From assembly GCA_000004695.1 (NCBI GenBank), contig CM000155.2:192001-256000 (forward strand): a stretch of 64,000 bases of DNA, written 5' to 3'. This document shows positions 34,725 through 41,500 of this stretch, one piece after another; the first letter of the stretch is position 1, and each line of letters starts with the position of its first letter. The notes under the pieces were generated by a model. The model did no database searches. It was not told the DNA's origin and saw only the letters and a list, made by a program, of their open reading frames with translations. The position numbers and the translations under genes were made by a program. This stretch comes from Dictyostelium discoideum. Lineage: Eukaryota.

Positions 34725-36889
<2,165 letters not shown>

Positions 36890-37174: not shown

Positions 37175-37567
37175 ATGTATAATAATAATAGAATTAATCA
37201 ATTTCAACAACAACAACAACAACAACAACAGCAACAACAACAAACACAATATAATACTCAATACTATGGACAATATCAACAACAAGGCCATATGATGGGT
37301 GGACATATGCAACAACATATGCAACATCCAAACCAATTTCAACAACATCATCTTCATCAACAACAAATGAGTATGATGGGTCATATGCCACAACAACAAC
37401 AACAACAACAATATGGTAGAGGATTTCCTCAACAAATGCAACAAATGCAACAACAACAACAAATGCAACAACAGCAACAACAGCAACAACAACAACAATC
37501 TGATAGGTTTGTATATTTATATTTTCATAATCTTAAGATTAACTCTATTATTTCACTCTTTTACTAA

Positions 37568-37604
<37 letters not shown>

Positions 37605-38588
37605 TTAATAAACCACCCAATAGTGATTTATCATTATATATAGGAGATTTAGCTACAGATGTAACAGATCAACAATTAATGAATGCATTTCAAGGTAGAT
37701 ATCCATCAGTTAGAAGTGCAAGGGTAATTATGGATAGTGCAACAGGTATATCAAGAGGATATGGTTTTGTAAAATTTGCAAGTGATGTTGAAAAAGATAA
37801 AGCACTCATTGATATGAATGGTTTCTATATAAATAATAAACCAATTAAAGTAAATAATCCAACTCATAAAAGATTAAATAGTCAAACCTCAACAATACCT
37901 GATTTAACTTCAACCGATCCAAATAATACTGCAATTTATGTTTCACAATTAGATCATTATATTGATGAAGGTGTTTTACAAACGTATTGTATATTTAAAA
38001 AAAAAAATACACAAAAGGGTATACTACTAATATTTAATTTTTTTTATAATTTTTTTTAGTATTTTTGGAGCATATGGTGAAATATCATATATTAAAATGT
38101 TAACAAATAAGTTTAGTGCATTTGTTAATTTTGTAAATAGAGAATCAGCAGAAGCTGCATTTGGTTTAAATAATTTTCCAGTTGGTAATACACGTTTAAA
38201 GGTTCAATGGGGTAAAAATGTTGCTCCACCACCAAAATCACCACCAATGACACCAACTAATATTGCTGTTAACATTAATACACCTCCAATATTTTCAACA
38301 AATATATCTTCAACGTCATCACCCTCTTCACATAGTGTTGTTGTAGTTAGTAGTAGTGGTGGTGGTGGTGGTGGTGGTGGTGGTGGTGGTACAATTAATT
38401 TCAATGAAACTTCAATTAACAATAACAACAACAACAATGATGGTAATATAAATAATAGTAATATAAATAATAATAGTAATATAAATAACAATAATAATGT
38501 TAATAATAATAATAATAATAAACCGAATGGAGTTTCAATTAATAATGATAAAAACAATTCAAGTATTTACGATCCACACTATACATAG
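37175..38588 (+). CDS. TIA1/TIAR/PUB1-like RNA-binding protein (poly-Q N-terminus plus two RRMs plus Gly/Asn-rich tail): join(37175..37506,37624..37983,38060..38588)
   Basis: Exon 1 reads MYNNNRINQFQQQQQ...SD plus AG at a GTTTGT donor. Exon 2 follows a cccaatag acceptor: SDLSLYIGDLATDVTDQQLMNAFQGRYPSVRSARVIMDSATGISRGYGFVKFASDVEKDKALIDMNGFYINNKPIKVN, which is RRM with RNP1 RGYGFVKF and aligns to TIA1 RRM2; donor AC|GTATTG. Exon 3 follows a tttttttag acceptor: (T)IFGAYGEISYIKMLTNKFSAFVNFVNRESAEAAFGLNNFPVGNTRLKVQWGKN, which aligns to TIA1 RRM3 (...KCYWGKE). The poly-T-derived N-terminal Met of ORF 37067 was rejected; the true ATG is at 37175. Confidence 0.8.
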
Positions 38589-41500
38589 TAAGTATTTTAT
38601 TTTATTTTTTTATTATTATTTTCAAATTCAAAAATATAATTTCATACTTACACAAATCTATTTTTATTTTTTTATTTTTGAAAAAAAAAAAAAAAAAGTT
38701 TTTCAAATGAAAAGATGGATATAACAAAGGCATACAATGTAACAGAGGAAAATAAAGCTTACTTATCTTGGAATAAACCTCAATTTACTACAAACTTTTA
38801 TTCACAAAAAACATGGGGTTTACCTCAAAAAGAAAAAGATGGTCCAGATAGTTCAGTTTTTGAAGCTTAGAGAGAAAGAGATATTAAAAAAAAACAAAAA
38901 AAAAAAAAACAAAAAAAAAAAAAAAAAACATATTTTCGCATTTGGCCTTGGATATCCAAGTTTATAATAACATACTAAAAAATCAAATTTACACACAGAT
39001 TTTAGGAATTATAAAATAATATGTATTTACCTTATTTAGGTGATTGATTTATTTGCAATAAAAAAAAAAAAAAAAATGAAATAATAAAATAAATAGTTAT
39101 TTTATATTTTTTTAAAAATAAAACAAATTATAATTAAATTTAAAATTATTATGAATTTAATGTTTTCTAATGGATATCATAATTTTCTATTGTTAAAGTT
39201 ATTATTGGTGGAGGGAGGGGGGGGGGGGTTACTTCTAGATTGGGTGCACCAATTGGTTCCCTATTTGTTGGCAGTGGTGTCACCATCTAATTCTCTAAAA
39301 ACTATTCTTTTTGTATCACCAACTAATTTAAAAGGGATACCCTCCTTGTTTATGAGTATATTGGTTAATTGAACAAGTTTTGATAGCTTTGCACATGCAG
39401 TATCTGCTTTTCTATTCCCAGTATTGATTGATTTCATACCCAATATAGTTTTATTCCAAAGCATCTTGTAAACCAACATCTTTTCTTAATTCTACACCAG
39501 CCATTTTATATTCTCTTGTGAATTTAATTAATACATTTTTTGAATGTTGACCATTGATTATCTTTCTTTTGTTCAACAATAGTTTTTTTAACTATGTTTG
39601 TTGCTGAATTTGTATTTTTTTTACCTTTGGTCATTCTATAGCTAAAAATGGTGTGAAAAAAATTTTCAATTATTTTTTTTTTTAATTTTTTATATAATTA
39701 TTTTTTTTTTATTTTTATATCACTATTTTTTTAATTTTTTCATTATGTGATATTCTTTTTTTTTCTTTCCAAAACATAAAAAAAAAAACCCAATAAAGTT
39801 AAAATTTTTTTTTATTTTCAAATAAATAAAATGACTTATCATAATCAAAAAAAAAAAAAAAACATATTTACACATTTGGCCTTATTTTCATTTAAAATCA
39901 TGATTGTAATCTCCCCTAAATTATAATAAAAAAATAATAGCAAATTGGTCATTTAATTAATTAATTAATTAATTAATTAATTAATTAATTAAAGAATAAT
40001 TTGGATGACAACATCATTAATTATAAATGATGATAGTTTAAGATATTATTCTTTTATTTTCTTTTCCTTAAAAAAAAAAAATCCTTTTTATTTAAGAAAA
40101 GATTTAATCTCTAATCATTGCATTTTTTTAAATAAATTTTATAAAGAAATAAGTTTATTTAATTTTTTTTTTTTTTTTTTTTTTTTTCTCAATCCAACAA
40201 GATATTTTTTTTTTTTAAAATAAAAAAAAATTCATGTGATTTTCAATAAAAATTAGATATTTTGAAAAAAAGAAAAAAAAAAAAAAAACAATGATTGTTT
40301 TAAAAATAGAAAATTGATTTTTTGTTCAAATTAACGAGATATTTTATATATATATTTTAGTAAATTTTTTTGATGATTATACGATAGTTTTTTTAAATCA
40401 CCTTCCAGATATTATAATAATACATACTAAAATAAAATTTTTTTAAAAAAAAAAAAAAAAAATATTTAAAAAAAAAAATATTTAAAAAAAAAAAAATTAA
40501 TATTAAAAAATGATTACCCAAATTTATAAAGTACTTATAAGTTGGTAGTTTGGGGGATTATATGATGAGATTCAAAAAAAAAAATAAAAAAAATAAAAAA
40601 AATAAAAATAAAAATAGGAATGGAAATTAAACTATTTTAAAATAAAATAATCTATGAATAGATTGAAACTCCCAATGTGGGTGATTCACTTAAAAACGCC
40701 CTGATAAACAAGAAACTTCAATTAAATAATAATAATACAAATTAAAAAAAAAAAAATTAATAAATATAATAAACTTACACATACACACACACACCTAAAT
40801 TATTTTCATTTTTCTGCCTTATTAACAATCAAAAAACATCACACAAATTGTGTTTCACATCTTAATTTGTGCTAAAAATTGATAATAGTGGTAGTAGTGT
40901 GGGCCACAACAATAATAGTAAATATAATAATAAAAAAAAAAATTGTGTAAAATGCCAAAAATAATAGCAATCAGTTTTTTCATTTTTTCAGAAAAAAAAA
41001 AAAAAAAAATGATTGTTGATATCGTTGTTATTTTTATTGTGTTGTTGTTATTTATTGAAAAAAAAAAAAAAAAATTGATTGGATTGTAAAGTGGTATTAA
41101 TATAGAATTTCATATAAAAACATACATATATTGCAATATTGATGAAAATTATTTTTCTAATTTTAGATTTAAAAAGAAAAAAAAAATAAAATCAGTTATT
41201 TTAATTTTTTTAAAAAATATTATTTTTTTCATTTTCTAAAAAATAAAATCACCTTTTGATTTAAATATTTTTTTTTTTTAATTATTTTTTTTAATTTTTT
41301 TTTTTTTTTTTTTTCTTGATTTAATTAATAATGGGGTGAAAAGTGTCTTTAGGGGTCTATTTTCATAAAAAATAATTTTTTGGAAAAAAAAGAGGTGAGT
41401 GGGAACACAAAATTATAAAATTTTAGGTGGGTTAATGATTGAATTAAATGTGCGGTGGTGATTTAAACCTCTAATCGTTGAGATTAAATTTAAAACAAAA

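Follow-up and report, generated by a model that had tools for sequence, protein, structure and literature searches.

An apparent stop codon on a GTAAGT donor probably marks an exon end, not the gene end, in a Dictyostelium discoideum RRM gene

Here we have analyzed a 64,000-nt stretch of Dictyostelium discoideum DNA (assembly GCA_000004695.1, contig CM000155.2, forward-strand positions 192,001 to 256,000; the whole stretch is hereafter called the window, and position 1 is its first letter) and follow up a plus-strand gene encoding an RRM protein whose reading frame appears to end at a TAG at 38586-38588. We find that the gene most probably (about 0.9, judged from sequence comparison) has its third and final intron at 38588-38698, an ordinary spliceosomal one of the U2-type GT-AG class, and its true final coding exon at 38699-38870. 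In the proposed model, splicing would join 38587 to 38699 and remove a 111-nt intron that splits a Tyr codon (TAT) after its second base, the 463-aa spliced form would be the conserved default product, and the TAG at 38586-38588 would be present only in unspliced sequence. An initial annotation of the window had put forward such an in-frame fourth exon, and the gene models of orthologues together with cross-species conservation now lend that proposal strong support. Annotations of related species already include exon 4, and the result is accordingly a correction to a gene model and not a new phenomenon.

Splice signals at the apparent stop codon

The open reading frame (ORF) of exon 3 terminates CAC TAT ACA TAG, and the G of that TAG is the first base of GTAAGTATTTTATTTT, which begins at 38588 and places a GTAAGT at 38588-38593; the coordinates thus bear out the overlap of stop codon and donor that the initial annotation had pointed to. 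Only two AG dinucleotides lie within 38588-38698, one at 38591, inside the GTAAGT itself, and the other the acceptor at 38697-38698, which is the first AG past the donor. When 38587 is joined to 38699 in phase 2, TA and T form a Tyr codon and the frame then reads FSNEKMDITKAYNVTEENKAYLSWNKPQFTTNFYSQKTWGLPQKEKDGPDSSVFEA up to a stop codon at 38868-38870, exactly as had been proposed. Exon 3 (38060..38587, plus strand) would therefore end in the first two bases of this Tyr codon, an ending that the orthologues share (with TT for TA in Polysphondylium violaceum), and the apparent stop (38586..38588, plus strand) would consist of the last two bases of the exon and the G of the donor and would not be the normal stop of the gene. 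Intron 3 (38588..38698, plus strand; 111 nt, phase 2, 10% G+C) runs from the donor octamer GTAAGTAT (38588-38595) to an acceptor that reads A17G, and the coding part of exon 4 (38699..38870, plus strand) comprises the T that completes the Tyr codon and 56 further codons, with its putative true stop, TAG, at 38868-38870. The sequence further contains a possible branch site, CTTAC at 38647-38651, and the D. citrinum intron has a similar CATACTTAC. A motif scan of intron 3 found neither AATAAA nor ATTAAA.

How much weight can such signals carry in DNA of this composition? GTAAGT occurs 8 times on the plus strand of the window and 10 times on the minus strand, with about 16 copies expected per strand from composition, and the hexamer by itself is not informative. 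A run of 57 codons would stay open by chance in the local base composition with a probability of about 0.005. Taken together, the splice signals, the open frame and the cross-species conservation described below are far beyond chance.

The same arithmetic accounts for the stop codon. The TAG at 38586-38588 would arise because an exon ending in TA abuts the obligatory G of the donor, and a phase-2 intron that opens with GTAAGT brings a TAA into frame one codon later in any such case. As a stop upon read-through is thus automatic, it need not be seen as a designed feature of this gene.

Conservation of the intron position among dictyostelids

Orthologues were found by homology search with the 406-aa product of the unspliced sequence, their genomic loci were retrieved and the proteins were mapped onto them. 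The closest proteins are those of D. citrinum (P0001, ACTFIV_009645, 421 aa) and D. dimigraforme (P0002, ACTA71_007542, 420 aa), and two further annotated orthologues come from D. purpureum (P0003, DICPUDRAFT_51830, partial) and P. violaceum (P0005, CYY_005096, 376 aa). The window locus and its flanking genes line up collinearly with the D. citrinum and D. dimigraforme loci, which supports orthology.

All four annotated orthologues carry a tail beyond the window's apparent stop (...DPHYT-YFSNEK.DITKAYNV...), and at the junction they read ...IYDPHYT/YFSNEKLDITKAYNV...DGPDSSVFEA or an equivalent, one example being ...SIYDPHYTYFSNEKLDITKAYNVNEENKAYLSWNKPQFSSNFYSQKTWGLPPKEKDGPDSSVFEA (here and below a slash marks the exon boundary). 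At the DNA level, the junction of TA/GTAAGTAT...AAAAAG/T in the window (111 nt) corresponds to TA/GTAAGTAT...AAATAG/T in D. citrinum (264 nt), TA/GTAAGTAT...ATATAG/T in D. dimigraforme (184 nt), TA/GTAAGTAT...TTATAG/T in D. purpureum (406 nt) and TT/GTAAGTAT...TTATAG/T in P. violaceum (691 nt). The phase-2 site is therefore identical in all four other dictyostelid genomes, and the same donor octamer opens all four orthologous introns, which are unalignable among species apart from their splice sites. P. violaceum splits a TTT (Phe) codon instead and has no TAG at this position; the apparent stop is thus incidental to an exon that happens to end in TA.

The D. purpureum protein model is partial because its contig (L004:5140-5231, GL871625.1) stops inside exon 4. 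We additionally observe that the last 17 nt of this contig (AATGTTAATGAGGATAA) duplicate an earlier stretch of exon 4, which points to an artefact of assembly where the contig ends.

Selection on exon 4 and the distribution of its peptide

In a DNA alignment of the window with D. citrinum and D. dimigraforme, exon 3 is near-identical, identity is lost across the intron except at the splice sites, resumes exactly at the acceptor AG and drops directly after the stop codon at 38868-38870. Exon 4 is 89-93% identical in nucleotide sequence to its counterparts in these two species, with zero indels among the three. Its codons differ from those of D. citrinum by 12 synonymous and 5 non-synonymous changes, and the ratio of non-synonymous (dN, 0.04-0.05) to synonymous (dS, 0.26-0.60) substitution rates is 0.076-0.154, which indicates purifying selection on the protein sequence that exon 4 encodes.

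The peptide encoded by exon 4 forms the C-terminus of all four annotated orthologues (P0001, P0002, P0003 and P0005) and of a more basal relative, P0121, and is 39-48% identical in P. violaceum and P0121. A profile search with the peptide across 1.84 billion representative proteins gave four matches (P0002, P0100, P0003 and P0121), each of them the C-terminus of an RRM protein of 244-420 aa and none a stand-alone peptide; a local HMMER search added P0001 and P0005 as carriers. Other searches with short queries were less productive. A word-index homology search with the 57-aa extension returned no candidates, a false negative in that the full-length orthologues contain the peptide, and a homology search with an alignment of the C-terminal half returned four proteins, none transcript-derived, while missing P0001, P0002 and P0005; word-index negatives from short queries are accordingly untrustworthy, as known orthologues were missed. 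Among JGI metagenome contigs scanned for relatives of exon 4, there were 154 pattern matches, of which 0 were confirmed. The 57-aa extension matched no Pfam family, and Rfam and tRNA scans of the region gave no match.

Possible retention of intron 3 and other readings of the locus

Several observations weigh against the four-exon model and should be set beside the evidence above. First, the gene models of the orthologues were annotated computationally, with unknown support from RNA. Second, the window's acceptor is an AAG after a run of 17 A, the orthologues use TAG, and the window's site could be somewhat weaker. Third, exact matches to the 406-, 51- and 463-aa products were absent from the protein collection; four unrelated ORFs of the window were equally unmatched, so this negative is uninformative about the source annotation. 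Fourth, an environmental contig (L005, JGI Ga0256900_1036765) from a Polysphondylium-like organism, with about 84% DNA identity to P. violaceum, lacks the earlier introns of the gene and keeps the last one unspliced. Specifically, L005:63-1115 carries an uninterrupted 302-codon ORF from which introns 1 and 2 of P. violaceum are precisely absent; the ORF ends TCA TA/GTAAGTAC, and another 144 nt that look like intron then take the contig to its end. On the simplest reading, L005 is an mRNA-derived contig in which the last intron is still present, and it may represent either a partly processed pre-mRNA or a genuine retained-intron isoform; a genome from which two introns have been lost would be less parsimonious. 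A scan of JGI metagenome contigs for further contigs of this species returned L005 only.

It is possible, but in our estimation unlikely, that intron 3 is retained substantially or in a regulated manner beside the 463-aa form, yielding a 406-aa isoform without the conserved tail. L005 speaks in favor of this, as do the departure of the A17-AG acceptor from the TAG acceptors of the orthologues and the fact that retention leads to an immediate stop in every species examined. The immediate stop, however, is the automatic result of phase 2 and GTAAGT and is no evidence of selection, and L005 is one contig only, comes from another genus and is of unknown library type. Since splicing removes the last intron last, the contig may be partly processed pre-mRNA; it may also derive from a genome in which two introns were lost. 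Furthermore, intron 3 has no poly(A) signal, so that an unspliced mRNA would run through exon 4 anyway, and the strong purifying selection on exon 4 shows that the spliced form is the one that is maintained. Less likely again is the bolder suggestion that retention of intron 3 constitutes a conserved, regulated dictyostelid switch between the full-length and 406-aa forms, of which L005 would be a first glimpse. As intron 3 is the last intron, an mRNA retaining it has no exon junction past its stop; as a general principle, an mRNA whose stop lacks a downstream exon junction might escape junction-dependent decay, and if the switch were real its truncated mRNA would be stable for this reason.

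The initial annotation had also considered alternative splicing that replaces the stop with a 57-aa extension. The extension stands; the TAG as a normal stop does not, the spliced 463-aa form appearing instead as the conserved default. Splicing of intron 3 in this organism is probably efficient or constitutive.

The separate small gene that had been offered as another possibility can be set aside. A 51-codon ORF does run from an ATG at 38715 (38715..38717, plus strand) to the exon 4 stop, as had been described, and an A-rich stretch precedes it, so that an RRM gene ending at 38586-38588 might in principle be followed by an independent 51-aa product. Such a gene is nonetheless extremely improbable: the Met codon is TTA (Leu), TTG (Leu), ACT (Thr) or GAA (Glu) in the four orthologous loci; conservation also takes in the five preceding codons (FSNEK), right up to the acceptor AG; an out-of-frame ATG at 38707 comes first, 8 nt upstream; 38715 lies only 126 nt from the supposed upstream stop; and homologues of the exon 4 peptide are all C-terminal parts of RRM proteins. 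Equally improbable is that the downstream conservation reflects a non-coding element of the 3' untranslated region (UTR), since nothing specific speaks for one beyond the fact that such elements can be conserved among close species, whereas substitutions concentrate at synonymous sites, all species keep an open frame, which in those of group 4 is free of indels, the peptide is still recognizable in P. violaceum and P0121 and Rfam offers no match.

Gene model upstream and downstream of the last intron

Enumeration of the upstream GT/AG pairs leaves a single combination that keeps the coding sequence uninterrupted with both RRMs complete, and places the start ATG at 37175, a correction to the surrounding gene model. 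Exon 1 (37175..37506, plus strand) encodes the Q-rich N-terminus and aligns with P0001 and P0002. It is followed in this enumeration by intron 1 (37507..37623, plus strand; 117 nt, GTTTGT...AATAG) and by exon 2 (37624..37983, plus strand), which carries the first RRM and the beginning of the second, with a Pfam RRM_1 match at residues 115-186. Intron 2 (37984..38059, plus strand; 76 nt, phase 2) reads AC/GTATTG...TTTAG/T, and the P. violaceum intron 2 occupies the same codon position and phase, within a Thr codon (AC/GTATGT...AATAG/T). Downstream of exon 4, a motif scan picks out an ATTAAA at 38883 and an AATAAA at 39057 as candidate poly(A) signals, which would place the poly(A) site of the RRM gene after one or both of these and a likely 3' UTR at 38883..39062 on the plus strand. 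The window as a whole has an extremely high AT content, its intergenic DNA is rich in homopolymers and its coding sequences contain poly-Q and poly-N runs, as is typical of a Dictyostelium genome.

The protein and its C-terminal tail

The spliced product of the four exons has 463 aa and comprises an N-terminal Q-rich region, two RRMs, an N/G-rich linker and the conserved 57-residue C-terminal tail. Pfam RRM_1 matches two stretches of it. The best matches outside the dictyostelids are RBP47/RBP45, proteins named "tRNA selenocysteine 1-associated protein 1", NGR1 and TIA1, at 30-39% identity over the RRM region. E-values for this region range from 1e-43 to 1e-30 against plant RBP47/45 and TRNAU1AP-named proteins and reach 1.6e-18 against Drosophila TIA1, such that the RRM region lies nearest to plant RBP45/47, selenocysteine-associated-named proteins and fungal NGR1, with TIA1 more distant. 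The "TIA1-like" label given in the initial annotation is thus acceptable in a loose sense, as RRM similarity goes, although the protein has two RRMs and not three. The orthologues from group-4 Dictyostelium and from P. violaceum likewise lack an N-terminal RRM and start with a Q/N/H-rich low-complexity segment. At the window locus, only about 290 nt lie between the end of the upstream gene and the ATG at 37175, which makes a hidden N-terminal exon unlikely.

The tail itself (DITKAYNV.E.NKAY.SWN...F..N...GPDS) appears to be restricted to dictyostelid-like RRM proteins. In an AlphaFold2 model of the D. citrinum orthologue, the RRMs are confident and the exon 4 region has predicted local distance difference test (pLDDT) values of about 35-43 with two short helices; by this model, the tail probably amounts to a short motif within a disordered region.

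A wider resemblance was also considered. A shared C-terminal motif, [DN][IV][TDE].xN..[YF][LIMV], was picked out by eye and by regular expression in Marchantia and chytrid proteins named as selenocysteine-associated (P0017 and P0027), and the pattern [DNTE][IVL][DTE][KEQR].N..[YF][LIMV] likewise occurs near their C-termini. The window's exon 4 peptide NVTEENKAYL (38736-38765) resembles this motif by eye only, its fifth residue being E. Human TRNAU1AP presumably carries a similar DVTEANKEFM near its C-terminus. HMMER gave no score for the wider C-terminal motif in the Marchantia and chytrid proteins, and the resemblance remains a lead only. Literature searches on Dictyostelium with SECp43, TIA-1 or stress granules, and on intron retention in Dictyostelium, returned nothing usable.

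The neighborhood of the gene

The upstream neighbor (34725-36889, plus strand) ends ...LIAGIFGMNVHLPGE... followed by a hydrophobic tail and is syntenic in D. citrinum and D. dimigraforme. Read from the sequence, this ending is a GMN motif typical of CorA-like magnesium transporters.

Downstream of the RRM gene, the 856 nt of 38875-39730 have a counterpart of just 198 nt at the syntenic position in D. citrinum. The 21-nt sequence CATATTTNCNCATTTGGCCTT is directly repeated, at 38929-38949 and again at 39863-39883, with no such repeat expected by chance; both copies follow an A-run, and they bracket about 934 nt. This species-specific segment may be an insertion or a local duplication. Within it, three ORFs of 36, 42 and 72 aa overlap in shifted frames on the minus strand of 39167-39634, and there is a run rich in G at about 39203-39230. 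Scans of 39167-39634 found no Pfam match for these ORFs, no tRNA and no Rfam match. It is possible that the minus-strand ORFs are what is left of a decayed gene or a fragment of a mobile element.

Discussion

The value of this result lies mainly in quality control, and current knowledge is unchallenged by it. More generally, where an ORF in an AT-rich genome runs into a TAG or TAA right on a GTAAGT, it is likely to have reached the end of an exon and not the end of the gene. In the present case, the four-exon model adds 57 conserved residues; apart from these and the RRMs, nothing in the C-terminal half is conserved, and tagging, knockout and domain analysis of this RRM protein should rest on the four-exon, 463-aa model.

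Set against known systems, the last intron of this gene looks unexceptional. It shares with the canonical short, AT-rich GT-AG introns of dictyostelids a GTAAGT donor, an AG acceptor, about 10% G+C and a length of about 100 nt, and the other two introns of the RRM gene are likewise similar to it. Nothing substantive sets it apart; the sole curiosity is the TA-ending exon, by which the unspliced sequence acquires a TAG. Compared with its annotated orthologues, the window gene has the same order of domains, the same phase-2 position of the last intron and the same C-terminal tail, whereas the lengths of the low-complexity Q, N and G runs differ, the last intron measures 111 nt as against 184-691 nt, and an AAG acceptor behind an A17 run takes the place of the TAG of the orthologues.

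A further comparison is with systems in which intron retention gives rise to C-terminally truncated isoforms. An unspliced mRNA would here truncate the protein exactly at the exon 3 boundary, and L005, from a relative, has this very configuration; yet the in-frame stop is a trivial by-product of the intron phase and the donor sequence.

Finally, the protein shares with the group of TIA1/TIAR, PUB1/NGR1, RBP45/47 and TRNAU1AP (SECp43) the similarity of its RRMs and a Q-rich low-complexity region. TIA1, PUB1 and RBP47 have three RRMs where the window protein has two, and the more basal relatives P0121 and P0100 keep an N-terminal RRM at the place where the window protein has its Q-rich segment. 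The tail encoded by exon 4 likewise distinguishes it from the TIA1/RBP47 group, belonging to no Pfam family and being detected by HMMER in dictyostelid-like proteins alone.

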